This document shows, in pieces, positions 6,001 to 62,303 of a stretch of DNA of 64,000 nt. The stretch is from Thermodesulfobacteriota bacterium (GTDB lineage: Bacteria > Desulfobacterota > QYQD01): positions 35,117 to 99,116 of the forward strand of contig JAVHLC010000011.1 in the NCBI GenBank assembly GCA_031082315.1, written 5' to 3'. Every line of letters begins with the position of its first letter. Within the stretch, counting starts at the first letter, position 1. The position numbers were made by a program, and so were the translations under genes. Below the pieces are notes generated by a model that worked only from the letters and a program-made list of their open reading frames with translations, did no database searches and had not been told where the DNA came from.

Positions 6001-6789
6001 TTAAGGACTGCTTTTTATAATATCTTTTATAGCCTGCATGCCCTGTTGGACTTCCTTACTGTCCGGGTTAATATCCAGGGCCTTTTGATATGTATCCAGG
6101 GACTTTTCCATCCAGTTTCCTTCCCGATAACTTTCGGCAGCCAGGCAGTAACCTCTTTCCTTCTGACCGGAAAACATCTCCTCAAAAAGCCGGGGTATGG
6201 AATTTATCCCCCAGATCCGGTCAAATTCGGGCTCATTTTCTATTAATAGACGAAGCACAAGGTGGTTATCCGGGTATTTCAGCAAGACTTTATGCAATTG
6301 TCCGGCTGCCCTTAAAAAGAGGCGATTCAGATGGCCCATCGCCAAATTGACCTCTGCGGTTGTTTTTTCAAAAAGTTCCAAATAATCATCCATGCCTTGA
6401 TTTTCTGTAAATTTCTTATGTTGATAGATCATTTTTTCATAAGCCGGTTTATAATGTTGCAATAAGTAAATATTTTCTTTGAGCTTCATGCCCTCGTGGA
6501 AGATAGAGCCAACGAGCCAATCCAGAAGGGCGCACTCGACGTCCATTTGCTCCTCATCGCCCCACACCGCATGACAGAGGTCTTTGAACTGCCACAGGGG
6601 CCCCTTCCGCACCTCGGTGCCGATCCAGTAGTCCATATTTTTAAAGGACATCTCTGCGCTCTCATTATATGTCTTGTATAGTTGTTCAAAAAAATTTAAG
6701 GTTTTTAGAAAGTCACGTATGGCATTTCGGACAAAGATGTCTTTATGTTCTTCAAACCAGTTATTGCGGGCCGACTTCTTATTGGTCAC
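6001..6789 (-). CDS. Hypothetical protein (TPR-like C-terminus), translationally coupled to the upstream radical SAM gene
   Basis: 262 aa ORF. Its start overlaps the rSAM stop by 4 nt. No recognisable catalytic motif. Confidence 0.45.
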   Translation of the reverse strand: MTNKKSARNNWFEEHKDIFVRNAIRDFLKTLNFFEQLYKTYNESAEMSFKNMDYWIGTEVRKGPLWQFKDLCHAVWGDEEQMDVECALLDWLVGSIFHEGMKLKENIYLLQHYKPAYEKMIYQHKKFTENQGMDDYLELFEKTTAEVNLAMGHLNRLFLRAAGQLHKVLLKYPDNHLVLRLLIENEPEFDRIWGINSIPRLFEEMFSGQKERGYCLAAESYREGNWMEKSLDTYQKALDINPDSKEVQQGMQAIKDIIKSSP

Positions 6790-8594
6790 TCCCTGAGTCC
6801 TCCTTCTCTGACCGCCAGGCTAAGATATTGATCATTTTCTTTCAACATAATACGTTTTTGTACTAATTCATTAAAAAACTTTTGTAAAGACTCCAGCGAG
6901 CAGCCAGGAAATCCCTCTTTTATATCCTTGAGTGATTTTATGGTCGTACAGTAGAGATATACATTGCGGGAGGGACCGTGGAGTCTATGGATTTGAACAC
7001 TACCATCTGATCTTATCTGTCGTATGCTGAGAAACCTGCCCCCATCCCGGTAAGAGAGAAGGGGTTGCGACGGATATTGGTTTCGCAGAAGAAAATAGTC
7101 TTTCCGCCACATTTCCACCTTTTTTGCTACCGGTCTCCATAAGGTATATTGTCGGGATCTATCGCCCCGATGAGCCTGCTGTATTAGTATTAGTCGTGCA
7201 AAGAGTTCCTTTGACAAAAACGATTTATACAGGTGGTGATTGCCTGTCCGTTTAACCCCGAATTCTTTGGCAGTACAAAAGACCGGACTGCCGTAGCCCA
7301 ACCAGAAAGACGCCATTTTTAATGGATAAAAAGGCCATACGAAATCGAGGGCGTCCAGTGTTTCTTTCACTTCAGCCGGTGAGCTGCCAGGAAACATGGT
7401 GATCAGGTTGCCGGATTGAATAATGCCCAGCTCTTCGCAGTGCCTCATGGTCTCTATATTCTGGAGGGCTGTGGTTCCTTTGCCCATTCGTTTTAGCAGA
7501 GAAGAACTTAAGGCCTCGATGCCGATCTGGACCGTTTTCAGCCCGCCTTCGCGCATTAAGGCCAGGGCTTGGGCGGATTGTCCGGCGCGCAGCTCGGCGA
7601 AGATGCCAAGGTCTTTTTCCAATGTGGTGAGGGCGGTAAAAAGCTCCGGCCCCTGATGAGGCGGCAGCGCATTGTCGGTGAAGGCCAGATCAATGGACGG
7701 ATAGCGATCGGTCAGGTCCTTGATCTCCCCTACCATCTGAGGTACAGATTTCTTTCTATAGCTGTGCCATTGGAGGTTAAGGTTACAAAAGCGGCATTTC
7801 CGCCACCAGCAGCCGCGTGAAAACTCTACCGGCAGGACCGGCAGGAATGGAATCCGGGGGGATATATCCTGTAGGAGGTTAAAATAATCCCCATAATCCG
7901 GCGGCGGAAGTGAGCTTAAGGCGTTGATCTCATCATAACTCCCCCCTGATACCATGCCCTGGCTGTTACGGTAAAAGACCCCGGGTCCTGGTTTATCGAC
8001 CTCCCCCTTAAGAAGACGTACAATGGATAAGAGGGGTTTTTCGCCTTCACCGGAGACGACAAAATCTATCTCCGGCAAGCTGGAGAGAATGGCCCGTCCC
8101 ATCTCGCCCGAACAGCTTGAACCGCCGGCTACAATGGTTATCTCTGGAAATCTCGCCTTCAGGGTACGTATGGCGTAGAGTGAAGATGTAAGCTGATTAA
8201 GGCAGATAGAGAAGCCTATTAGGTTGAACTGCCTCCAATCCCTCGACCGTATAAAAGCTTCATGGTGATCGCTGAGTTTAGACTTAAGAGCGGAGAGATC
8301 AAAATGAAGTTTATATTTTTTAGACCTTTTTTGTTTGTTTATTAAGGAATGAATCGATGTATTTTTTTCCGGAAAGAGGAGTGAGGCATAGATAGCCTCG
8401 GTAATCCAGCTATGTTTTGAAATCTCGTGGTAGAGTTCAAAACCGATCTGGGCGGCGACTTCCAGATAAATCGGGTAAGTGGAGATATCGAGGGCATCAT
8501 CCTGCGATGCAAGGTAGGATTTAAGCGCACCGAGTTGTATGGAGGGCCGGTTAAATAGCGGCCAGGGCATGGAAATTAGGGCTATCCGGAACAT
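6786..8594 (-). CDS. B12-binding-domain radical SAM protein (class B-like) with an atypical CWWRKCRFC cluster
   Basis: 602 aa. The N-terminal MFRIALISMPWP resembles a Rossmann-like B12-binding domain. The central SRGCWWRKCRFC gives Cx4Cx2C rather than the canonical CxxxCxxC. Confidence 0.55.
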   Translation of the reverse strand: MFRIALISMPWPLFNRPSIQLGALKSYLASQDDALDISTYPIYLEVAAQIGFELYHEISKHSWITEAIYASLLFPEKNTSIHSLINKQKRSKKYKLHFDLSALKSKLSDHHEAFIRSRDWRQFNLIGFSICLNQLTSSLYAIRTLKARFPEITIVAGGSSCSGEMGRAILSSLPEIDFVVSGEGEKPLLSIVRLLKGEVDKPGPGVFYRNSQGMVSGGSYDEINALSSLPPPDYGDYFNLLQDISPRIPFLPVLPVEFSRGCWWRKCRFCNLNLQWHSYRKKSVPQMVGEIKDLTDRYPSIDLAFTDNALPPHQGPELFTALTTLEKDLGIFAELRAGQSAQALALMREGGLKTVQIGIEALSSSLLKRMGKGTTALQNIETMRHCEELGIIQSGNLITMFPGSSPAEVKETLDALDFVWPFYPLKMASFWLGYGSPVFCTAKEFGVKRTGNHHLYKSFLSKELFARLILIQQAHRGDRSRQYTLWRPVAKKVEMWRKDYFLLRNQYPSQPLLSYRDGGRFLSIRQIRSDGSVQIHRLHGPSRNVYLYCTTIKSLKDIKEGFPGCSLESLQKFFNELVQKRIMLKENDQYLSLAVREGGLRE

Positions 8595-9130
8595 TTCCTG
8601 TCAGCATGAACATGCATAGCGAGCGCATTCCCCGTTGCTTGCCATCCAGGTCCGACACTGGCGGGCAGCGGGGTTAGCGAGCGAATACGATGCATTTTAC
8701 CTTGCATACGGAGATTCCCCGCAGCTTGCTGCGGGGGGGCTTCAACATGGCTTAACGATAATGAGACCTTCCGGGCGGGGGCCTTTTTGTCCGGCTGTTT
8801 ATAATGCATCCTGTAATCTTCAATGGCCAGCATGAGGCCAAAGGCGATGGCTAAGACCAGAAATATCTTGATGATCCGTGGCCAGGATGGCCTTGTCTTT
8901 TCGATCCAGACAAGGAGTCTAACCAGAAGCCGGGTAAAAATCGCAGCCAGGCCTGAAGACCAGAAAATCTTTATTCCGGTTTCGCACATAGAGCGGCCAA
9001 CGTCTCCGGGGTAATAACGCAGGGCGATGAAAAACCAGCCTAAGGCGCAAACGGCCACAATGATCTTATCCCGTGTAGTCCAGATAGGGTTAAGAGACTC
9101 AGATTTTGTTGCCACTATCCCGTCCTTCAA
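8582..9130 (-). CDS. Hypothetical small membrane protein; the 3' third of the ORF is encoded by an A-family repeat
   Basis: Two or three predicted TM helices in the first ~120 aa. Codons after about aa 128 fall inside the repeat at 8606..8745, so the C-terminus is probably an insertion artefact. Confidence 0.35.
   Translation of the reverse strand: MKDGIVATKSESLNPIWTTRDKIIVAVCALGWFFIALRYYPGDVGRSMCETGIKIFWSSGLAAIFTRLLVRLLVWIEKTRPSWPRIIKIFLVLAIAFGLMLAIEDYRMHYKQPDKKAPARKVSLSLSHVEAPPQQAAGNLRMQGKMHRIRSLTPLPASVGPGWQATGNALAMHVHADRKCSG
8606..8745. repeat. A-family hairpin repeat, copy A1 (long form with the nested ~70-bp insert)
   Basis: Shares the core gaacatgcatagcgagcg...aatacgatgcattttaccttgcatacggagattcccc-[palindrome]-ggg(g)agcttcaa with the copies at 24464, 41228 and 45116. 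The apical palindrome is ccccgcagc-ttg-ctgcgggg. Confidence 0.8.
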
Positions 9131-9860: not shown

Positions 9861-10052
9861 ATAGCTGAAGGCTGAAAGCTCAAGGCTGAAAGCCTTAAAA
9901 CCAGAGAAACCAAAGAAAACAGAGAAACTACGGACAACGGACCACGGACAATACATACTTACCGGTAAAAAGACTTTGTTACGAAATCGTCAAGGTTGAG
10001 CCTTTAGCCTTGAGCCTTGAGCTTTCAGCCTTCAGCTTTTAGCTTTTAGCCT
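9861..10052. repeat. E repeat: a long imperfect inverted repeat built from tandem GCTGAARGC / AGCCTTSAG units around a ~100-nt spacer
   Basis: The left arm gatagctgaaggctgaaagctcaaggctgaaagcc and the right arm ttgagcctttagccttgagccttgagctttcagccttcagc are approximately reverse-complementary. The spacer carries agagaaac and acggaca repeats. It lies between the metG 3' end and the eamA-like start. Confidence 0.7.
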
Positions 10053-18885: not shown

Positions 18886-18989
18886 GAGGACTTGCTGTAT
18901 CGCATCGATAGGATAGGGGCTAACTATCCGCCTGCAGCCGACGCCAGGTAACGTGGTTGGCTTTTCCCGGAGCGCAGTTTAGGACTTTA

Positions 18990-20085
18990 GGGGACGTCCA
19001 TAAATAAATAAATTGACACCAGATTAATATAATGCTATTTAACCGTTCATGCCAAGATTAGCCCGCCTGGATGCGCCCGGCGTATTACATCATGTTATTA
19101 TCCGAGGAATAGAGCGTCGAAACATATTTAAAGATAATAAAGATCGCGATAATTTTCTGGGGCGACTGGCTATCCTCCTGCCTGAAACCCAAACGGCCTG
19201 TTACGCATGGGCACTGTTGCCTAACCATGCCCATTTCCTGTTTCAAACCGGTAAGGTAGGTCTCTCCACTCTAATGCGAAGACTGCTTACCGGATATGCA
19301 GTCAGCTTTAACCGCAGGTACAATCGGCACGGGCAGCTTTTCCAAAACCGCTACAAATCGATTATCTGCCAGGAAGACGTTTACTTACAGGAATTGGTTC
19401 GCTATATACATTTAAATCCATTAAGGGCAGGGTTGGTTTCTGAACTGGGTGATCTTAACAAATATAAATACTGTGGACATAGCGTGTTGATGGGCAAGGT
19501 TAGGCGCCCATGGCAGGATACAAAATATGTACTGTCCTATTTTGGCAAGAATATTGGTGAGGCGAGAAGGAGTTACCTTTCCTATATAGAAGAAGCTCGG
19601 GATCAAGGCCGTCGGCCGGAACTGATGAGCGGGGGATTAATTCGAAGTCTTGGTGGGTGGGCAGAGGTAAAAAAGAGGCGGTTAAGAGGCCGGGATCGTG
19701 TTAAGGGAGATCAGCGCATATTGGGGGAGACCGATTTTGTAATGGAGATACTGGCGGAAGCTGATGAAAAGTATAATCGTTATTATGAACTGAAAAGCCT
19801 GGGATACGATTTAAAGACCGTGGAACGAAAAGTTAGTGAGATATACCGGATAGGACCGGAGGATATCTATAACAAAGGCCGGCAAAAGACGCGGGTAGAA
19901 GCCAGGAGTTTGTTTTGTTATTGGGCGGTGCGGGAACTAGGCTATGGGTTGACGGATTTGGCCAGACGTCTTGGTATGACCCAGCCAGCCGTGGGATATG
20001 CTGTAAGCCGGGGAGAGCGTATAGCCAAACAAAATAACCATCATCTGATTAAATGACTATTATTTACTTATTTATGGACGTCCCC
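18990..20085 (+). mobile_element. IS200-like / REP-associated tyrosine transposase (RAYT) element with 24-bp terminal inverted repeats
   Basis: The left end GGGGACGTCCATAAATAAATAAAT (18990-19013) and the reverse complement of the right end GGGGACGTCCATAAATAAGTAAAT (20062-20085) match at 23 of 24 positions. They enclose a single transposase gene. Confidence 0.7.
19049..20056 (+). CDS. Y1 (HuH) tyrosine transposase, IS200/RAYT family, with a C-terminal DnaA-C-like HTH extension
   Basis: 335 aa. Carries an HuH motif (PNHAHFLF) and the conserved Y-region. The C-terminal ~90 aa is HTH-like. Confidence 0.7.
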   Translation: MPRLARLDAPGVLHHVIIRGIERRNIFKDNKDRDNFLGRLAILLPETQTACYAWALLPNHAHFLFQTGKVGLSTLMRRLLTGYAVSFNRRYNRHGQLFQNRYKSIICQEDVYLQELVRYIHLNPLRAGLVSELGDLNKYKYCGHSVLMGKVRRPWQDTKYVLSYFGKNIGEARRSYLSYIEEARDQGRRPELMSGGLIRSLGGWAEVKKRRLRGRDRVKGDQRILGETDFVMEILAEADEKYNRYYELKSLGYDLKTVERKVSEIYRIGPEDIYNKGRQKTRVEARSLFCYWAVRELGYGLTDLARRLGMTQPAVGYAVSRGERIAKQNNHHLIK

Positions 20086-20231
20086 AAAAGGCTTTCACGG
20101 GTCAGAAAATTGCAATAGTCAGCATTGATAATTATGCTTACCTCGTTCCTTATATACAGGAAAGCGAAGAGATATTTTTAAAAACCATTATTCCCAGCCG
20201 AAAAGCTACAAAGAAATATGTGAGGTCATAA
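20086..20231 (+). pseudogene. brnT: 3' remnant of a BrnT/DUF497-family toxin gene, truncated at the IS right end
   Basis: The frame is open from the IR boundary and encodes ...GQKIAIVSIDNYAYLVPYIQESEEIFLKTIIPSRKATKKYVRS*. SARKATKKE is the DUF497 C-terminal hallmark. The stop lies 2 nt before the brnA ATG. No N-terminal part is found upstream of the IS. Confidence 0.5.
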
Positions 20232-24368: not shown

Positions 24369-24382
24369 CCTGTTTAGGGCTA

Positions 24383-24460
24383 CCCCCGGTCATTTTTGTT
24401 TTTACCTGTATATTCAGCGCATACTTTCTGGTACAAATCTGGTCCAATACGAAAAAGCCA
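24383..24460 (+). pseudogene. 3'-terminal fragment of a BASS-family transporter gene, a paralog of the gene at 33941..34894
   Basis: About 78 nt at 24383-24460 align to 34785-34862 at roughly 80% identity. They encode VIFVFTCIFSAYFLVQIWSNTKKP against VVFVFICIFTASFLVQIWSNTKKP in the intact gene. The A2 repeat follows directly. Confidence 0.6.
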
Positions 24461-24463
24461 GGC

Positions 24464-24551
24464 TGAACATGCATAGCGAGCGAATACGATGCATTTTACC
24501 TTGCATACGGAGATTCCCCGTCCGCCCCAGGTGGACTGTGGGGAGCTTCAA
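24464..24551. repeat. A-family hairpin repeat, copy A2 (short form)
   Basis: Has the ctgaacatgcatagcgagcgaatacgatgcattttaccttgcatacggagattcccc-gtccgccccaggtggactgtgggg-agcttcaa core. Confidence 0.8.
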
Positions 24552-24586
24552 TTAGTACCGTCCCGCCTCTGACCACGAAAAATAGA

Positions 24587-24728
24587 CTTCTGGATTTTAT
24601 GCTATCGGCTTATCTAGTTGATATTTAAGGATAGTACCTTTTATTGTACTGTTTGCCAAATTGTAGTATCATCGCTTTTATATGCGAGTTTTGATGAAAA
24701 AAGTCGAGTCGATATAATATATAATGTT
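24587..24728 (+). repeat. C module copy 1: a ~140-bp duplicated AT-rich promoter-like segment
   Basis: About 88% identical to 45261..45400. Contains TTGATG-N16-TATAAT directly upstream of an RBS and the start of the protease gene. Confidence 0.75.
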
Positions 24729-26416: not shown

Positions 26417-26918
26417 ACGTTCATGCAGAACGTGCTTGACGAATTGTGAATAAGCAGGACATCCGCTTGGGGCGGACGGCAGTTACTCTATCTCCCGAAC
26501 CCCGGGGCTTCGTCATGTTATGCTGACTTGCCCGGATAGTTGGCTTTGTACGCCATTTACTCGCCACGTCCTGTGGCTCGCCCTTCGGGCCAGCAAATCT
26601 GTTCAAAATTGTTTATCCTGACGATTTTGTCTGTTCCCCGGATCAAGTCCGGGGCAGGCTTGACTCATAGCTTTGCAGTCCGGGTTACCGCTCCCTGCGG
26701 TCGCTCTCGCCGTTGGCTCGTGGTCTCCGCTACGCTCTGGACCCTTCAGACGGTCTCTCACGATTCCGCCCTTGCCTTCGGCTAGTACTTCTGCTAACGT
26801 ATCACTAAGTAGGCAGGGTTCACCCTGTTAAATTCCCCCCAGGGAACCCTATTTAACAGGGTAAACGTACAGGGGGGACTTACACCCCATAAGCTCACGC
26901 CCATGCCGGGCGTACACA
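26417..26918 (+). repeat. Large structured ORF-free element, copy 1 (~500 nt); candidate ncRNA or IS200/IS605-derived non-autonomous element
   Basis: About 90% identical to 28216..28694. Starts with the hairpin ACGTTC-atgca-GAACGT and ends with ACGCCC-atgcc-GGGCGT. Contains a perfect 16-bp stem GTTCACCCTGTTAAAT/ATTTAACAGGGTGAAC and many smaller palindromes. Carries an extra 29-nt hairpin insert (ccccggatcaagtccgggg...). Confidence 0.8.
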
Positions 26919-26987
26919 ATTCGTTCAAGAGGGACGCGGCATAAGGCCGCCGCGCCCCTTAGCTTTGGAGTTCGGGCCTAAAAGAAA

Positions 26988-28215: not shown

Positions 28216-28694
28216 ACGTTCATGCAGAACGTGCTTGACGAATTGTGAATAAGCAGGACATCCTCTTGAGGCGGACGGCAGTTACTCTATCTCCCGAACC
28301 CCGGAGCTTCGTCACGTTGTGCTGACTTGCCCGGAGACTGGGCCTGGTATGCCGTTTACTCGCCACGTCCTGTGGCTCGCCCTTCGGGCCAGCAAAGCTG
28401 TTCAAGATCGTTCATCCTGACGATTTTGTCTGTTCGTCGGCTCATAGCTTTGCGCTCCGGGTTACCGCTCCCTACGGTCGCTCTCGCCGTTGGCTCGTGG
28501 TCTCCGCTGCGCTTCGAACCCTTCGACGGTCTCTCACGATTCCGCCCTTGCCTTCGGCTGGTACTTCTGCTAACGTATCACTAACTAGGCAGGGTTCACC
28601 CTGTTAAATTCCCCCCAGGGAACCCTATTTAACAGGGTGAACGTACAGGGGGGACTTACACCCCTTAAGCTCACGCCCATGCCGGGCGTACACA
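28216..28694 (+). repeat. Large structured ORF-free element, copy 2 (~480 nt)
   Basis: See copy 1. Has the same terminal hairpins and the 16-bp stem but lacks the 29-nt insert. Confidence 0.8.
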
Positions 28695-28785
28695 ACTGCG
28701 TTCACGCGACCTCGTGACCTCGGCGCGTGACCCACATGTTATTATGCTTCTTGATAGTAAGAATTAAGAGGAGGGGAAATAGTAT

Positions 28786-33940: not shown

Positions 33941-34894
33941 TTGAATCGAATACTTAACATCTTCAATCGCCTGTTTGTCCTCTGGATTGTCCTGGCCGGC
34001 GTAGCCGCCTTCTATTTTCCGGCCGTCTTCATCCCATTGAAGAAACACATGGAGCTATTCTTTGCCATAACCATGTTCGGCATCGGAATGGTCTTAAAAC
34101 CCATAGACTTCGTGAATATCTTTAAAAACATCAAGGTAGTGGTTATTGGCACGGCTGCTCAATTTACGATCATGCCGCTATCGGCTTTTTTCGTTGCCAG
34201 GCTTTTTTCATTATCAAAAGAGTTTTCCCTGGGCCTGATTTTGACCGGATCGGCGCCGGGGGCCATGGCCAGTAACGTACTGAGCTATCTCGCCGGTGCC
34301 GATGTCGCCTATTCGGTATCGTTGACCACTGTATCCACCCTCCTAGCGCCGGTCCTTACCCCACTTTTAACCCTGCTCTTAGCCCATACCATACTGGAAA
34401 TCCCCTTTTGGGAGATGTTGGTCAGCGTTTTCAACATGGTGGTTATTCCACTTTTTTTGGGCATAACCGTAAAAGGCATTTTCTCTGGCAAAGTGGAGTA
34501 CCTGTCCAAAGTCTTCCCCGCAATTTCCACCACATTCATAGCCTTTATCTGCGCGCTGGTCGTAGCCCTTAACAAAGAATACCTTATGAAAGTAAACACC
34601 TGGATTTTTATGGCGGCGATTTTGTTGAATCTCTTGGGGCTGTTCTTGGGCTACATGACAGGAAAGACATTCGGTTTTGATATCCTGAAAAAACGGGCCT
34701 TATCCATTGAAGTCGGCATGCAAAATGCCGGTCTGGGCAGCGTGCTGGCCTTAAAACATTTTAATGAGAAAGTGGCCCTGCCCGCGGTCGTTTTTGTTTT
34801 TATCTGCATATTCACCGCCTCCTTTCTGGTGCAAATCTGGTCCAATACGAAAAAGCCAACTATTTCAGTCCCTTTATCTTTTGGACGTTTTTGA
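33941..34894 (+). CDS. Bile acid:sodium symporter (BASS) family transporter
   Basis: 317 aa with about 9-10 TM segments. Shows the BASS layout, including ...GLILTGSAPGAMASNVLSYLAGADVA... Confidence 0.7.
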   Translation: MNRILNIFNRLFVLWIVLAGVAAFYFPAVFIPLKKHMELFFAITMFGIGMVLKPIDFVNIFKNIKVVVIGTAAQFTIMPLSAFFVARLFSLSKEFSLGLILTGSAPGAMASNVLSYLAGADVAYSVSLTTVSTLLAPVLTPLLTLLLAHTILEIPFWEMLVSVFNMVVIPLFLGITVKGIFSGKVEYLSKVFPAISTTFIAFICALVVALNKEYLMKVNTWIFMAAILLNLLGLFLGYMTGKTFGFDILKKRALSIEVGMQNAGLGSVLALKHFNEKVALPAVVFVFICIFTASFLVQIWSNTKKPTISVPLSFGRF

Positions 34895-39127: not shown

Positions 39128-41212
39128 CTAAGCCTCGCCTTCCTTTTTACCCGCAGCGACAATCTTTTCAGTCAGGTGAGCCGGAACTTCTTCGTAGTGC
39201 AAGAATTCCATGCTGAATGTGCCGCGTCCGGCAGTCATCGAGGTGAGCTCGGAGGCGTAACGCAGCACCTCGACCATGGGCACATGGGCCAGGATGGCCT
39301 GCACCCCGGATCGTGTCTCTACCCCTATTACCTTTCCCCGGCGGCTGTTTATGTCCCCGATAACATCACCCATGCAGTCGTCCGGGACCAGAACAGTCAT
39401 AGACATGATCGGTTCCAGCAAGATAGGCATAGCCTCCAGCATGCCTTTCTTGAAGCACTGGATGGCTGCAATCTTGAAGGCTGTCTCCGATGAATCAACC
39501 TCATGCGACTTACCGTCATAAAATCTGACTTTAACGCCCACGACCGGATAGCCGGCCAAAGGGCCTGCCTGCATAGCTTCCTGAATGCCCTTTTCCACTG
39601 CAGGAACAAAATTGCGGGGTACATTCATTCCGGTCAGGGCATTTTCAAACTCAAAGCTGCCCCCCTGGGGCAGGGGACTGATATCAAAGTGAACCTCGGC
39701 AAACTGCCCGGCCCCGCCGGTCTGTTTCTTATGCCGATAGACAACACCCTGTTTGGTTTTTTTGATGGCCTCTTTATAAGGGACCTTGGGCAGGGTAAGG
39801 TTGACGTCAACATTGTATTTTCTTTTTAACTTTTCTGCGACAACCTCGATATGGATTTGTCCCATGCCGGAAAGAATGGTTTCCCTGGTCGCCTCATTAC
39901 GGGTAACCAGGATGGCATTGTCTTCTTCTTTGAGTTTCCCCAGGGCCGCGGATATCTTCTCTTCATCGGCCTTGGTTTTTGGTTTTAAGGCGTAGGAAAT
40001 AACCGGCTGCGGCGGTTGCAGGGCCTCAATGATGACCGGCGATCCTTCAGTACAGAGGGTGTCACCGGTCACGGTGTCCCTTAATTTAGCGACTGCGACC
40101 AATTCTCCCGGTCCCACACCTTCAACGGATTTTTGTGCCTTACCTTCCAGGGACAGAAGCTGGCCGATACGCTCTGTGGTCTGCTTGTTTGAGTTGTAGA
40201 GGGTGGTGTCCGGTTTCAGTGTGCCGGAGTAAATGCGCAAGATAGAGAGCCGTCCGGCATACGGATCAGACAGGGTCTTGAAGACCAGAGCCGCCAACGA
40301 CGCATCGGGAACGGGAGCTATTTCGACCGGTTCCTTGGTCTTGGCATTTAAGGCCATTTTTGCTCCCTTATCCAGAGGTGAAGGAAGATATTGATTGACG
40401 GCCTCCATAAGGGTGGTGACACCGATATTGCGTGTAGCTGAGCCACAGCATATCAGGACAAATCGTCCCGCAGTCATACCGCCGGCCAGGCCTTTTTCTA
40501 TTTCGGCCACCGTCAGGGTTCCTTCCTCCAGAAATTTTTCCACCAGGGCGTCGTCTGCCTCCGCAGCGTATTCCTGGAGATTTTCCCGGTGTTTTTTAAC
40601 AGAATCTTTCATGTCTTCGGGGATAGGACATTCCTTGTACTGGCCGCTTTGATCGCCGGCAAATACAAAGGCCTTTTCATTTATGAGGTCCACCACCCCG
40701 GTGAACTTATCTTCTGCGCCAATAGGGAGTTGAACGGGCACGCAGCGGGCGTTGAGGGTGGTGGAAATGCTATCTAATGTCCTGTAAAAATCCGCCCTTT
40801 CCCGGTCCATTTTATTAATGAAAATAATACGGGGCAGATGGAACTCCCCAGCCAGATTCCATATCTTCAGGGTTAAGGGTTTGGCCCCGTCAATGGCATC
40901 GATTACGAATACGGCGCTGTCTGCCACCTGCAGGGACATCCTGGTATCATTGAGGAAATTATCATCACCCGGGGTATCGATAAAATGGATCGTATGTTTT
41001 TGCCACGTATAATGATTAAAGGCCGAGTTTATAGTAATCTTTCTTTTGATTTCTTCCGGTTCGTAGTCCAGAATTGAGGTGCCGTCATCTACCCGGCCCA
41101 GACGGTTTGTCCGTCCCGATGCAAAAAGTATTGCCTCGGCCAGGGATGTTTTGCCTGCGCCGCTATGAGCGAGCAAGGCTATATTGCGAACCTTGTCTAA
41201 CTGAATACCCAT
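39128..41212 (-). CDS. Elongation factor G family GTPase, a likely EF-G2 paralog (not in str-operon context)
   Basis: 694 aa. Has G1 AHSGAGKTS, a DTPGD G3 motif, and full EF-G domains II-V. Confidence 0.75.
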   Translation of the reverse strand: MGIQLDKVRNIALLAHSGAGKTSLAEAILFASGRTNRLGRVDDGTSILDYEPEEIKRKITINSAFNHYTWQKHTIHFIDTPGDDNFLNDTRMSLQVADSAVFVIDAIDGAKPLTLKIWNLAGEFHLPRIIFINKMDRERADFYRTLDSISTTLNARCVPVQLPIGAEDKFTGVVDLINEKAFVFAGDQSGQYKECPIPEDMKDSVKKHRENLQEYAAEADDALVEKFLEEGTLTVAEIEKGLAGGMTAGRFVLICCGSATRNIGVTTLMEAVNQYLPSPLDKGAKMALNAKTKEPVEIAPVPDASLAALVFKTLSDPYAGRLSILRIYSGTLKPDTTLYNSNKQTTERIGQLLSLEGKAQKSVEGVGPGELVAVAKLRDTVTGDTLCTEGSPVIIEALQPPQPVISYALKPKTKADEEKISAALGKLKEEDNAILVTRNEATRETILSGMGQIHIEVVAEKLKRKYNVDVNLTLPKVPYKEAIKKTKQGVVYRHKKQTGGAGQFAEVHFDISPLPQGGSFEFENALTGMNVPRNFVPAVEKGIQEAMQAGPLAGYPVVGVKVRFYDGKSHEVDSSETAFKIAAIQCFKKGMLEAMPILLEPIMSMTVLVPDDCMGDVIGDINSRRGKVIGVETRSGVQAILAHVPMVEVLRYASELTSMTAGRGTFSMEFLHYEEVPAHLTEKIVAAGKKEGEA

Positions 41213-41227: not shown

Positions 41228-41375
41228 AACTGAACATGCATAGCGAGCGCATTCCCCGCTGCTTGCCATCCAGGTCCGACCCTGGCGGGCGGCGGGGTTA
41301 GCGAGCGAATACTATGCTTTTTACCTTACATACGGAGATTCCCTGTCCGCCGCAGGCGAACTGCGGGGAGCTTCA
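41228..41375. repeat. A-family hairpin repeat, copy A3 (long form) in the EF-G paralog 5' region
   Basis: Same core as A1, including the nested ~70-bp insert flanked by agcgagcg direct repeats. The apical palindrome is ccgcag-gcgaa-ctgcgg. Confidence 0.8.
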
Positions 41376-41555
41376 ATCTTTATTCACAAGTTTTTGCAAA
41401 ATATCGACTTAAAATTTTAAAGTCAAGCCTTAATTGTAATAGTTCACCGCAGAGTGCGCAGAGAACGCCTCTGCCTGCCCGCCTTGCCTTGGATGCTTGA
41501 GTCCGGTGATTAAGGTTTTTCTTTTTTGTGTCGATATAGTTGGCGTAGCTTGTTG

Positions 41556-41720
41556 CCATCCGGCCACGGGCCGAAAGCCCCGGTTTTCCGGATGGAACGG
41601 TCAGCAGTCGGCTATCAGCGTTCAGCTTAAGATGATGTTGTTTGTCTTATTTTTTTGCTGACGGCTGAAAGCTGATCGCTGAGGGCTTTCATCCGGAAAC
41701 GGTAGTTTCCGGATGAAAAC
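41556..41720. repeat. B-family MITE-like element, copy B1, upstream of pilT
   Basis: The internal layout matches B2 and B3 (ggatggaRcggtcagcaStcRgctatcagcRttcagcttaa ... tttgctgaSRgctgaNRgctgaaagc ... ccggaaacggtagtttccggatgaaaac). It ends in a TTCCGGAA-type palindrome. Confidence 0.7.
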
Positions 41721-41746
41721 TAACTCAAGCGGAGGATTGGCTAAAG

Positions 41747-44644: not shown

Positions 44645-44737
44645 AGGTAACACCGCGTAGCCGGGACATTTACTAAACCCCCGCCATCTGATCGAAATCT
44701 CTTGATTTTCCCCCTTAGCTATGTTTATTTTTTGCCT

Positions 44738-45112
44738 ATGATTCAGTACGAATTGGCCGAGGACATTGGTGCATCAATAAAAGGCATTATTCATAAACTA
44801 CAAATGACCCATGTGGATGAATCCAGGCTGGTTTGTATAAGGAGCAAATACTCTAACAGCAAGAGGGTAATTGCCCGCTGCCACGGTCTTTCCAGAATCA
44901 TGCAATTAGCCCTCAACCAGAGGCCTCATTATGTTATCGAGGTTATTTCTGAAAGGTTTGATAAGCTCAGCAAAGAAGAGCAGATTAAGGTTCTTATCCA
45001 CGAACTCATGCATATTCCTCATTCCTTTGGAGGCGGGTTCAGAGTCCACAAGCCGTATGTGACTCAGAAGAAGGTTGAGAGGATGTACAGAAAGTTTGTA
45101 CGGGTCGGATAA
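44738..45112 (+). CDS. Putative small zinc metallopeptidase (HExxH)
   Basis: Contains IHELMHIPHSFGGGF, a HEXXH motif. The listed ORF starts at 44702; a later Met start at 44738 was chosen. Confidence 0.35.
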   Translation: MIQYELAEDIGASIKGIIHKLQMTHVDESRLVCIRSKYSNSKRVIARCHGLSRIMQLALNQRPHYVIEVISERFDKLSKEEQIKVLIHELMHIPHSFGGGFRVHKPYVTQKKVERMYRKFVRVG

Positions 45113-45115
45113 GCT

Positions 45116-45174
45116 TGCCATGCATACGGAGATTCCCCGTCCGTCCTCCGCCTGCGGCGGACGGGAAGCTTCAA
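45116..45174. repeat. A-family hairpin repeat, copy A4 (3' core only)
   Basis: gcatacggagattcccc-gtccgtcctccgcctgcggcggacggg-aagcttcaa follows directly after the metallopeptidase stop. Confidence 0.7.
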
Positions 45175-45260
45175 ATTTTCCACTGTGCCGCCGCCAAATA
45201 ATAAATTGCCATAATTACGTCGAGTCGACATAACATCGATAATTACAATAAAAAGCAGAC

Positions 45261-45400
45261 CTCCGGATTTTATGCTATCGTCTTATGTAATTGATATTTA
45301 ATTGCATTTCATTTTATTGTACTGTTTGCCAAATTGTAGTATCATCGCTTTTATCTGCGAGTTTTGATGAAAAAATCGAGTCGATATAATATATAATGTT
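45261..45400 (+). repeat. C module copy 2 (duplicated promoter-like segment)
   Basis: About 88% identical to 24587..24728. Lies upstream of the 115-aa gene. Confidence 0.75.
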
Positions 45401-49318: not shown

Positions 49319-49524
49319 GCGTGGTACTCATTCGAAAAAAAACAACCGTTTCCGGCTGGGAGTTCTCCGCAATCAGCAAGTAGCTGTTGGAGATAGAATC
49401 CAGAATTCAGGAGTCAGAATACAAAAGAGCTGAAAGCTGAGCGCTGATGGCTGACTGCCGACTAGATTATAATAAAACAAAGATTGTTTCAAGGGAATGT
49501 TTGCCGTATAATACGTCTCTGGAT

Positions 49525-56545: not shown

Positions 56546-56694
56546 GTTTTCATCCGGAAAACCAAGTTTTCCGGATGGAGCAGTCAGCACTCAGCTATCA
56601 GCATTCAGCTTAACATAATGTTTGTCCTACTCTTTTGCTGACAGCTGATGGCTGAAAGCGTGAAGCCGGAAACAGTAGTTTCCGGATGAAAACT
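56546..56694. repeat. B-family MITE-like element, copy B2 (complete, with ~16-bp terminal inverted repeats)
   Basis: The left end GTTTTCATCCGGAAAAC and the reverse complement of the right end GTTTTCATCCGGAAAC match. The right TIR supplies the ATG at 56686 for the listed AOR ORF. Confidence 0.75.
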
Positions 56695-56730
56695 GGATTG
56701 ATTTTTAGCAGGGCAGGACGGGACGAAATG

Positions 56731-61588: not shown

Positions 61589-62173
61589 TCAATTTTCTAC
61601 AATTACATAGGGTGCTATTTCTTTTAGTTTCTTTTCCCCGATCCCCTCGACATTCATAAGATCAGCAATGTCTTTGTACGGTCCATTTTGTTCGCGGAAG
61701 ATAATGATGCGCCGGGCAAGTTGCGGCCCGATGCCGGGGATTAGTTCCAGATTCTGTTCCGTGGCCGTGTTTAAAGGCATTGATATGTCCAGGAGAAGGC
61801 GTTCGGGATTGGTCATGGGGATAATTTTAATCTCATTTGTCCCCTCCGGTTTAGGGGTAACCAGAAGCTTTGTACCGGTAGGCACTTTCTGTGACAGGAG
61901 GACAGGGGAGTGCGAGGGATTTCGTTTCAACCCGCCGGCCCTTTCAATTACTTCTTTGACTGATGGTTGTAAGTAGAAAGTGTAGAGGCCGGGGGATCGT
62001 ACTCCACCCATGACTCGGACGTATTTTAGACCCTGGGTGGGAAATGACTCTGTAGGTGAGGCTGACCCGGGAGTTCTGCCATAAGAGAGGTAAAGACAGA
62101 CACCGAGCAGGACGACGGCTAGTAAGAGGACGGCCTGTTGCTCGTATCTGGTCATGATTATTGGGGGTTTCAT
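61589..62173 (-). CDS. comEA: ComEA-family competence protein (tandem helix-hairpin-helix DNA-binding domains)
   Basis: 194 aa with an N-terminal TM segment. The C-terminal LNTATEQNLELIPGIGPQLARRII...IADLMNVEGIGEKKL is an HhH repeat pair. Confidence 0.65.
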   Translation of the reverse strand: MKPPIIMTRYEQQAVLLLAVVLLGVCLYLSYGRTPGSASPTESFPTQGLKYVRVMGGVRSPGLYTFYLQPSVKEVIERAGGLKRNPSHSPVLLSQKVPTGTKLLVTPKPEGTNEIKIIPMTNPERLLLDISMPLNTATEQNLELIPGIGPQLARRIIIFREQNGPYKDIADLMNVEGIGEKKLKEIAPYVIVEN

Positions 62174-62300
62174 TATATGGCGGTCAGCTATCAGCGCTCA
62201 GCGTTCAGCTTAAGATGCTGGTTGTCTTGATTTTTTGCTGAGAGCTGACGGCTGATGGCTGAAAGCGTGAATCCGGAAACGGTAGTTTCCGGATGAACAC
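62165..62300. repeat. B-family MITE-like element, copy B3 (left TIR degraded), between cimA and comEA
   Basis: ggcggtcagctatcagcgctcagcgttcagcttaa...gctgatggctgaaagcgtgaatccggaaacggtagtttccggatgaacac. The comEA ATG falls in the remnant GTTTCAT of the left TIR. Confidence 0.65.
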
Positions 62301-62303
62301 TAA

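Follow-up and report, generated by a model that had tools for sequence, protein, structure and literature searches.

What are the four hairpin-bearing repeats that recur between the genes of a 64,000-nucleotide (nt) stretch of DNA from a Thermodesulfobacteriota bacterium (JAVHLC010000011.1, positions 35,117–99,116, forward strand; hereafter, the window)? The original prediction had classed them as sequences resembling repetitive extragenic palindromes (REPs) or bacterial interspersed mosaic elements, of the kind served by REP-associated tyrosine transposases (RAYTs). Our analysis led to a different assignment: the repeats are very probably non-autonomous derivatives, of the palindrome-associated transposable element (PATE) type, of an insertion sequence (IS) of the IS200 group (IS200/IS605 family), with the transposase gene deleted. 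They are ordinary selfish DNA.

All four repeats were present where they had been predicted, on the + strand, and the window held exactly these four. A profile search with nhmmer, using a profile trained on 40 foreign copies, recovered only them (E = 1.7e-35, 4e-31, 1.5e-17 and 1.6e-5), the next match having E = 0.41. The conserved core CATACGGAGATTCCC occurred four times with up to three mismatches, against 0.72 expected, a count also reached in 2 of 100 shuffles; the 5' scaffold occurred three times (0.03 expected) and the long insert twice (0.00 expected).

The limits of the element were observed by comparing the flanks of copies with each other and with empty sites, and the refined copy boundaries given below rest on that comparison. 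Two clean pairs of filled and empty loci with otherwise alignable flanks were found, L001 (filled) with L059 (empty) and L108 (filled) with L025 (empty). The empty site of L025 reads …ATGTTGAA/TAACTC, and the filled site of L108 reads …ATGTTGAA(CATGC…GCTTCAA)TACCTC. From the two pairs it follows that the element is CATGC…GCTTCAA, inserted 3' of TTGAA in the arrangement TTGAA/(CATGC…GCTTCAA)/T, with (T)TGAA as the 5' target and no target duplication, or at most an ambiguous AA (two sites). The empty sites hold the target tetranucleotide once. Across 104 copies with distinct flanks, positions -4 to -1 were T, G, A and A in 101, 99, 103 and 103 copies, respectively; position -5 was T in 66 (63%) and position +1 was T in 89 (86%), with random bases beyond. 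The +1 preference is already known in the IS200/IS605 family (PMC5934647). Nine times, the target's TGA doubles as the stop codon of an upstream open reading frame (ORF). An 81-nt repeat beside copy 2 was considered as an intragenomic empty site; it stops short of the insertion point and was uninformative.

To place the window copies within a family, we scanned one-genome-per-species contigs for CATACGGAGATTCCC-N10-40-GCTTCAA, which yielded at least 120 loci (here numbered with the prefix L) holding at least 129 further copies in at least 12 related metagenome-assembled genomes (MAGs). The possibility that only four copies exist, differing by random drift, thus does not hold. Among the matches listed, DSAQ01 (SpSt-1152) has at least 38 copies, JBFMFO01 at least 32, CAYSYZ01 at least 15, JASEGX01 at least 14 and JBFMAZ01 at least 10, and at least 20 more are spread over at least seven other MAGs. 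The host MAGs are labelled almost exclusively as Thermodesulfobacteriota, Desulfobulbaceae or “Deltaproteobacteria”. The window itself is 94% identical to DSAQ01000115 over 4.5 kb, so that its source is a close relative of that MAG. Three plasmids of Candidatus Manganitrophus (Nitrospirota) carry a 75%-identical relative of the element, in which the left hairpin is compensated and the 19-nt spacing, both guides and both end sequences (all described below) are kept. Identity between canonical copies is about 94%, whether they come from one MAG or from different MAGs, and almost no pairs are identical; this gives the family an old, mostly vertically inherited look, with recent insertions being few. 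A search of a phage collection gave no match, and a literature search on the hairpin sequence, the TTGAA target and miniature transposable elements with inverted repeats (MITEs) in Desulfobulbaceae found nothing. The family seems not to have been described previously.

The canonical unit is 110 nt long and forms the largest single class, with 34 of the 108 complete copies among the matches listed. Its parts follow in the order CATGCATAGCGAGCG-CATT-(CCCCGCTGCTTGCAGCGGGG)-TTAGCGAGCGAATACGATGCATTTTACCTTGCATACGGA-GATT-(CCCCGCAGCTTGCTGCGGGG)-AGCTTCAA, where the parentheses enclose the left and right subterminal hairpins, termed hairpin B and hairpin D. The two hairpins are one 20-mer except for a flipped pair 7-14, and they lie in direct orientation on one strand, hairpin B 19 nt from the left end and hairpin D 8 nt from the right end. 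No terminal inverted repeats were observed: the left end CATGCATAGC… has nothing in common with TTGAAGCTCC…, which is the right end in reverse complement, and the apparent TTGAA/TTCAA symmetry includes the flanking target. Folding as DNA gave z = -2.65 for copy 1, -2.70 for copy 3 and -3.95 for the canonical unit.

A short form of 76 nt (12 copies) lacks 34 nt, namely hairpin B and one AGCGAGCG. Since every divergent subfamily, including the Manganitrophus relative, keeps hairpin B, this hairpin belongs to the element and the short form is derived. The segment between the duplicated AGCGAGCG octamers, which had been taken for a foreign insert flanked by a target-site duplication, is thus the element's own left-end hairpin, present in the canonical form. 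What survives of the proposed nested element is a genuine 24-nt extension in the loop of hairpin B; the whole octamer-flanked segment is not such an element, and the short forms are deletion derivatives. The extension was seen in seven copies, including window copies 1 and 3, never outside hairpin B, and on both major subfamily backgrounds, each with its own linked variant.

Hairpin D comes in three architectures: type I of 20 nt, type II of 27–28 nt (CCCCGTCCGCC-N3-5-GGCGGACTGCGGGG) and type III of 32–36 nt with up to 16 perfect pairs. In the window, type I is found in copy 1, type II in copies 2 and 3 and type III in copy 4. Self-complementary tips, as predicted, therefore exist; they are not unique to each copy, being three recurring architectures common to many copies and genomes. 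Hairpin B may bear the same GTCCGCC…GGCGGAC replacement as hairpin D. The replacing hairpin, GTCCGCC-N4-GGCGGAC, was also found outside the family (L039:1829, L044:6416, L069:345 and L079:5445), including in at least one other repeat (GGACGTCCGCCTGAGGCGGACTGATAT…). Hypervariability marks the 4–5 nt after CCCCGTCCGCC in hairpins of types II and III (CCAG, GCAG, GTAG, TGGG, GGAG, …), which differ even between otherwise identical orthologous copies, as in L028/L064 and in hairpin D of L004/L092; in the window these nucleotides lie at 24527–24530 and 41352–41355.

These positions were compared with those known for the IS200/IS605 family, whose left end always lies 3' of an element-specific tetra- or pentanucleotide (PMC5027513) and whose Y1 transposase binds subterminal hairpins of 20–25 nt, while a 4-nt guide 5' of the hairpin foot base-pairs with the cleavage site (PMC6006769, PMC3201880). 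In IS608, the left hairpin has its cleavage site, TTAC, 19 nt to its 5' side, and the right hairpin has TCAA 10 nt to its 3' side (PMC3201880); the guides are AAAG (with TTAC) and GAAT (with TCAA), A+16 pairing with T-3 and A+17 with T-4 (PMC5934647). We accordingly crossed the first two positions, guide base 1 pairing with site base 2 and site base 1 with guide base 2; in-register pairing at bases 3 and 4 was deduced from the sequences. Under this rule, CATT with TGAA at the left end and GATT with TCAA at the right end each form four Watson-Crick pairs. The left arm is exactly 19 nt, which places the left guide at +16 to +19, the same numbering as in IS608. The parts of the window copies are as follows.

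8607–8610, + strand: target tetranucleotide TGAA left of copy 1, the left cleavage site, outside the element (flank counts; single in empty sites).
8611–8745, + strand: copy 1, full-length, 135 nt, with an extended left hairpin (profile match; ortholog in L076).
8626–8629, + strand: left guide CATT of copy 1, element positions +16 to +19, abutting the 5' foot of the left hairpin (IS608 numbering; pairs with TGAA).
8630–8673, + strand: left subterminal hairpin (hairpin B) of copy 1, long form (DNA fold; canonical 20-nt form CCCCGCTGCTTGCAGCGGGG).
8641–8664, + strand: 24-nt nested extension in the hairpin B loop of copy 1 (missing from the ortholog in the 94%-identical relative).
8713–8716, + strand: right guide GATT of copy 1, abutting the 5' foot of the right hairpin (pairs with the terminal TCAA by the IS608 rule).
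8717–8736, + strand: right subterminal hairpin (hairpin D) of copy 1, type I, CCCCGCAGCTTGCTGCGGGG (fold; the same 20-mer occurs in true IS200 elements at L137 and L144).
8742–8745, + strand: right cleavage site TCAA, the last four bases of copy 1 (boundary set by empty sites; its invariance across copies is imposed by the search pattern and is not independent evidence).
24468–24551, + strand: copy 2, 84-nt form without hairpin B, with a type II right hairpin at 24516–24543 (profile match).
41235–41376, + strand: copy 3, full-length, 142 nt (profile match; DNA fold).
41250–41253, + strand: left guide of copy 3.
41254–41297, + strand: hairpin B of copy 3, with the extension.
41337–41340, + strand: right guide of copy 3.
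41341–41368, + strand: hairpin D of copy 3, type II.
About 45116–45174, + strand: copy 4, a right-end fragment truncated on its 5' side, hairpin D being of type III (profile match).

Copy 4 begins 4 nt past the stop codon of the ORF at 44702–45112. The copy in L071, its probable ortholog, has an intact short-form 5' scaffold, without hairpin B.

We searched plasmids with each half of the element, and the hairpin matched at many places. One match, on a plasmid of Synechocystis sp. B12, directly follows an annotated IS200/IS605 tnpA gene; there (CP101711.1, 40.5–41.1 kb), a TnpA of 148 amino acids (aa) is encoded between two copies of the hairpin CCCCGCAGCTTGCTGCGATTGGG. Three copies with different flanks fixed this element as TTGAT/CTAAAAATGGGTTGCGCATA(CCCCGCAGCTTGCTGCGATTGGG)…tnpA…TAGATA(same hairpin)TCTTTCAT/, with the left guide CATA facing the target TGAT and the right guide GATA facing the end TCAT (TTCAT). 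It shares with the window family the hairpin core and the 8-nt length of the right tail, and the guide rule holds in it with different bases. The Synechocystis TnpA had 1425 homologues at E <= 1e-20, all PF01797, of which seven were fetched with their flanks, and the exact 20-mers of hairpins D and B were present in the homologue loci L137, L140, L141 and L144. Ten right ends were then compared, from seven TnpA-bearing elements, the window family and its Manganitrophus relative, and a PATE-like repeat of Acaryochloris. At all ten, the guide was Watson-Crick-complementary to the inferred terminal tetranucleotide, as follows; about half of these ends were fixed by differently flanked copies and the rest were read where the rule predicts, which makes the covariation less independent.

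Right guide GATT, end TCAA: window family; Manganitrophus relative.
Right guide GATG, end TCAC: P0061 and P0046.
Right guide GATA, end TCAT: Synechocystis element; P0085.
Right guide CATA, end TGAT: P0112; PATE-like repeat of Acaryochloris.
Right guide CATG, end TGAC: P0082, P0090 and P0065.

The metagenomic element P0061, whose right end is GATG(…)AGCTTCAC, shares the tail AGCTTCA(N) with the window family and differs from it at the covarying base only. This comparison with IS200 relatives is the strongest evidence that the window repeats are IS200-type ends. The nearest sequence relatives are the Synechocystis sp. B12 element and the metagenomic P0046, P0061, P0065, P0090 and P0112. On plasmid pREB3 of Acaryochloris marina, the hairpin matched 11 times, and the repeat at L128:1915–2045 is PATE-like and of the same design, TTGAA/…CATT(hairpin)…CATA(hairpin)TAGTTGAT; related gene-less elements therefore seem to exist in cyanobacteria.

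Several observations weigh against descent from an IS200-type parent. Neither the window nor the element-bearing loci (about 0.9 Mb) yielded a cognate IS200 TnpA; tblastn with the window Y1 protein (described below), the IS608 TnpA and the Synechocystis TnpA matched only paralogues of the first. No autonomous element with exactly the CATT/GATT guides and TTGAA/TTCAA ends was present among those examined, and a metagenome scan for a left end, 445–475 nt and a right end returned only one MITE followed by a solo right end. For several of the IS200 elements used in the comparison, the left end could not be delimited. Just two empty sites were found, one with GGAA instead of TGAA, and the copy identity of about 94% within and between MAGs speaks against recent bursts. 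The twelve dispersed copies without the left hairpin should be immobile, and their presence calls for recurrent deletion, which two orthologous pairs support. Finally, the strand bias is weak: the element top strand lies on the locally G-rich strand in 71 cases versus 46 (p about 0.03, from 8-kb fragments with non-independent data points), as do all four window copies (+ strand, GC skew +0.039). When the loci were scanned for left ends lacking a right end nearby, only deletion variants came up. L103, with a right end next to fragmented ORFs, was considered as a candidate parent and rejected, as it appears to be a 5'-truncated element with unrelated, uncharacterised ORFs upstream.

The sequences show the boundaries and target of the element, its lack of inverted repeats, the places of the hairpins, the complementarity of guides and cleavage sites, and the homology of hairpins and tails to real IS200 elements. 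For this family, we infer an enzyme, a single-stranded intermediate and present-day activity from the manner in which IS608 moves. A Y1 HUH transposase (TnpA) supplied in trans would bind both subterminal hairpins on the single-stranded top (+) strand, as in IS608, with the four bases 5' of each hairpin foot acting as guides, so that CATT would find the flanking TGAA on the left and GATT the terminal TCAA on the right. The top strand would then leave as a single-stranded circle with the predicted junction …GGGGAGCTTCAA/CATGCATAGCG… (right end/left end, GCTTCAA/CATGCAT), and the circle would re-insert 3' of another (T)TGAA, mainly in lagging-strand template DNA and without duplication. Once inserted, copies decay or change in place: between the AGCGAGCG repeats the left hairpin module is lost or gained, tips are swapped among the three architectures, and flanks of hairpins are “corrected” into perfect palindromes. 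Slippage, template switching and conversion between copies are the likely causes.

Changes of this kind could be followed at orthologous loci, defined as those with both flanks at least 90% identical. Window copy 1 differs from its ortholog in L076 by the additional 24-nt loop extension and one substitution, both copies having the rare GGGGGGGCTTCAA tail. L004/L092 and L007/L010 differ by the whole hairpin B module, L077/L090 have type II versus type I of hairpin D, and the sole difference in L028/L064 is in the 4–5 nt after CCCCGTCCGCC. These differences showed that tips and modules undergo exchange or rebuilding in situ, for which slippage between the AGCGAGCG repeats and conversion among copies are the probable causes.

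The complementarity of the tips had been attributed to selection on structure, a claim that could be upheld in part. Across 41 distinct 20-nt hairpins, 91% of the tabulated cells paired. Covariation was concentrated in pair 7-14 (U-A 15, A-U 13, G-C 5), and the other stem pairs varied one-sidedly, by wobble or by mismatch. Stems compensated over larger distances were seen in hairpin B of Manganitrophus and in the apical pairs of some type III hairpins. An excess of wobbles was considered as a sign of one structured strand; G·T outnumbered A·C 52 to 20 when copies were counted, and the excess vanished among distinct variants (20 versus 19), so that single changes look like drift. In L074, several simultaneous changes have turned one flank of hairpin B into a perfect complement of its partner (GAGCGCATT…AATGCGCTC), and the same kind of rewriting, CGCTCGCTAA…TTAGCGAGCG, occurs in two other copies. 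This is the signature of intrastrand template switching (quasi-palindrome correction), and some of the maintained complementarity therefore looks mutational, not selective.

Among the other explanations, we weighed first those that involve the sole Y1 protein encoded in the window. A Pfam search of 50 window ORFs identified this protein (19049–20056, 335 aa) by its Y1_Tnp and Bac_DnaA_C domains. The original prediction had called it a RAYT; the gene is of the TIRYT type, bracketed by its own 29-nt inverted repeats (18985–19013 and 20062–20090, 93% complementary, containing GGGGACGTCC), which are unrelated to the element family. TIRYT genes and the TIRtrons that contain them constitute subclass 2.1 of Quentin et al. 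(2018), near which no REPs have been reported. The GGGGACGTCC inverted repeat had no other occurrence in the window or the loci, and the TIRtron (18985–20090) was single-copy in all sequence examined. TIRYT paralogues and remnants occur in related MAGs, and the inverted repeats of a second intact paralogue, in L035, are different again. In three of about nine remnant loci (L021:3480–3830, L094:1620–1960 and L011:1520–1850), the remnant of the TIRYT gene and an element are within 100 nt of each other, and in L021 an element replaces most of the TIRYT gene between its inverted repeats. Such adjacency may reflect deletion or recombination between element copies.

Could these genomes keep hundreds of IS200-type end-pairs without a cognate TnpA, serviced in trans by the single-copy TIRYT Y1 proteins? 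We consider this unlikely. If true, such servicing would be a long-term association like that of REPINs and RAYTs for a different Y1 subclass, and the rapid in-place turnover of the tips, including the hypervariable nucleotides after CCCCGTCCGCC, would reflect repeated enzyme action, not passive decay.

It is very unlikely, we believe, that the repeats are REP/REPIN-like elements moved by a resident RAYT-type enzyme, be it the Y1 protein at 19049–20056 or one of its paralogues. The occurrence of a Y1_Tnp protein in the window and of its relatives in related MAGs, the three remnants close to elements and the failure to find an IS200 TnpA in the window and the element-bearing loci are all in line with such a reading, as is the equal identity of copies within and between genomes, which old, vertically inherited repeats would show. 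It is contradicted by the inverted repeats of the TIRYT gene, which recur nowhere else in the window or the loci, and by the lack of REPs in the literature near this subclass; motifs like these inverted repeats (GGGGAC[GA]-type) were not enriched beside elements (2 observed versus 1.7 expected), and no element parts were detected in the flanks of the Y1 gene. Further, hairpins B and D are direct and each self-folding, not the inverted doublet of a REPIN; the bases 5' of them are CATT and GATT, with no GTAG/CGTC tag; and the ends are defined, match those of IS200 in detail and follow the fixed 5' target (T)TGAA without duplication. The REP/BIME-like class was consequently abandoned. Of the proposed family reading, dispersed hairpin-bearing intergenic repeats with a Y1/HUH single-strand transposase as a putative partner were retained, and the element class and the specific partner gene were not.

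That the repeats are a structured RNA family (a small RNA, a 5' or 3' untranslated-region element or a terminator) kept by selection on RNA structure is highly improbable. The stable predicted hairpins, the one strongly covarying pair, the better folding of the + than the - strand in the long copies and the position of copies 1 and 3 close upstream (12–16 nt) of start codons would all suit an RNA. Against this, an Rfam 15 search of the window gave no relevant match at the gathering score, and copy 3 gave chance-level matches only at E <= 10; when distinct variants are counted, G·T and A·C mismatches occur with equal frequency, as described above. No U-tract or other terminator-like site was present at any window copy and the orientation to genes is mixed (38 copies co-directional with both neighbours, 23 opposite to both, 23 between divergent and 13 between convergent genes), so the terminator function proposed for the repeats was not borne out. 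Presence/absence polymorphism with precise ends and a fixed target also contradicts an RNA family.

The least credible reading is that of a conventional MITE, mobilised by a DDE transposase, whose inverted ends would be the 5-bp TTGAA/TTCAA and whose insertion would duplicate 2 bp, AA. It draws on the reverse complementarity of the left TTGAA and right TTCAA and on the 2-nt AA ambiguity left by the empty sites, and is extremely improbable because the left TTGAA is already in the empty site and hence is target, the ends share nothing beyond 5 nt, and the guides, the hairpins, their spacing and the covariation with true IS200 elements would go unexplained.

The insertions also bear on the annotation of the neighbouring genes. 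For a radical-SAM gene (6786–8594, - strand), copy 1 is situated 12 nt upstream of the start codon ATG. An ORF at 8582–9130 (- strand) with a weak match to DUF4131 (ComEC N-terminal) reads through copy 1, its last ~54 codons being mostly element-encoded, and is probably a gene fragment or a gene whose C-terminus was altered by the insertion. Copy 3 lies about 16–22 nt upstream of the EF-G paralogue (39128–41212, - strand), in agreement with its predicted place in the 5' region of that gene. Copies 2 and 4 follow + strand genes and precede a promoter-like module, which confirmed the report of two copies upstream of a duplicated promoter. This module of ~125 nt (TTGATG-16-TATAAT at 24691–24718) was found three times in all data, at 24578–24702 and 45251–45375 of the window and in L071, always 92–142 nt downstream of an element, on the same strand and upstream of different genes; element and module appear to have been duplicated as one unit. 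Other repeats were also observed. The 81-nt repeat mentioned above (24380–24460 and 34778–34858, 89% identity) is, in its copy beside element copy 2, a duplicate of the 3' end of an SBF-family transporter gene (33941–34894). A segment of ~500 nt is duplicated 1.8 kb apart with 92–96% identity (26417–26919 and 28216–28695), and one of the two copies gives the only Rfam gathering-score match of the window, a group II intron D1-D4 fragment (28276–28357, - strand). Members of a second repeat family, made up of GCTGAnn heptads in runs with a CCGGAAAC-GGTAG-TTTCCGG hairpin after them, lie just upstream of genes (41571–41723, 56554–56696 and 62154–62303; also 9864–9889 and 49429–49454), and GCTGA-rich stretches also flank elements in L014, L022, L077 and L090.

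With these results, a repeat that is abundant in a clade of uncultured sulfate-reducer-like bacteria (four copies in the 64 kb of the window, at least 38 in a single MAG) can be annotated precisely; repeats of this sort interrupt MAG assemblies and give rise to spurious ORFs. The family also lends itself to study of the guide/cleavage-site code of IS608, with four different Watson-Crick combinations at homologous right ends, while Cyanobacteriota, Thermodesulfobacteriota and Nitrospirota have the same 20-nt hairpins in conserved form. At orthologous loci, in-place change is much faster in hairpin tips and in a whole end module than in their surroundings, from which it follows that complementarity in repeats can stem from templated mutation or conversion, not from selection alone. 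The current understanding of how IS200/IS605-type elements work is unchanged by these findings.

Among known systems, the REP/REPIN elements with their RAYTs resemble the present family in being intergenic hairpins of high copy number whose foot has a 4-nt guide on its 5' side, in their related class of Y1 HUH enzyme and in forming an old, largely vertically inherited population. The element differs from them as a two-ended unit with a flanking target that was not found flanking any Y1 gene. The TIRtron likewise encodes a Y1 HUH protein, lies in the same window and has relatives in related genomes, and its 29-nt inverted repeats, with a GGGGWSAS-like motif and single-copy here, have nothing in common with the element family. 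IS200-group elements share with it the lack of inverted repeats and of a duplication, insertion 3' of a 4–5-nt target, similar hairpins on one strand that are partly identical 20-mers, and 4-nt guides complementary to the cleavage tetranucleotides. Unlike them, the element has no tnpA, is only 76–142 nt long and has hairpin tips in three size classes, and its combination of the target TTGAA with the guides CATT/GATT was seen in no autonomous element examined. The left hairpin spacing is 19 nt here as in IS608, whereas the right spacing is 8 nt compared with 10 nt. Closest in design are the PATEs of Haloquadratum and Natronomonas (PMC3119063), every stated feature of which is found in the element: no inverted terminal repeats, similar near-terminal palindromes with the longer distance at the 5' end, a 4–5 bp targeting sequence, no target duplication, a length too short to code, repeat-mediated core deletions and small nested pieces. 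PATEs are archaeal, whereas the element is bacterial (Thermodesulfobacteriota and Nitrospirota), and it derives, in all likelihood, from a tnpA-only IS200-type parent, not found in the same genomes, and not from IS1341 or IS605 types.

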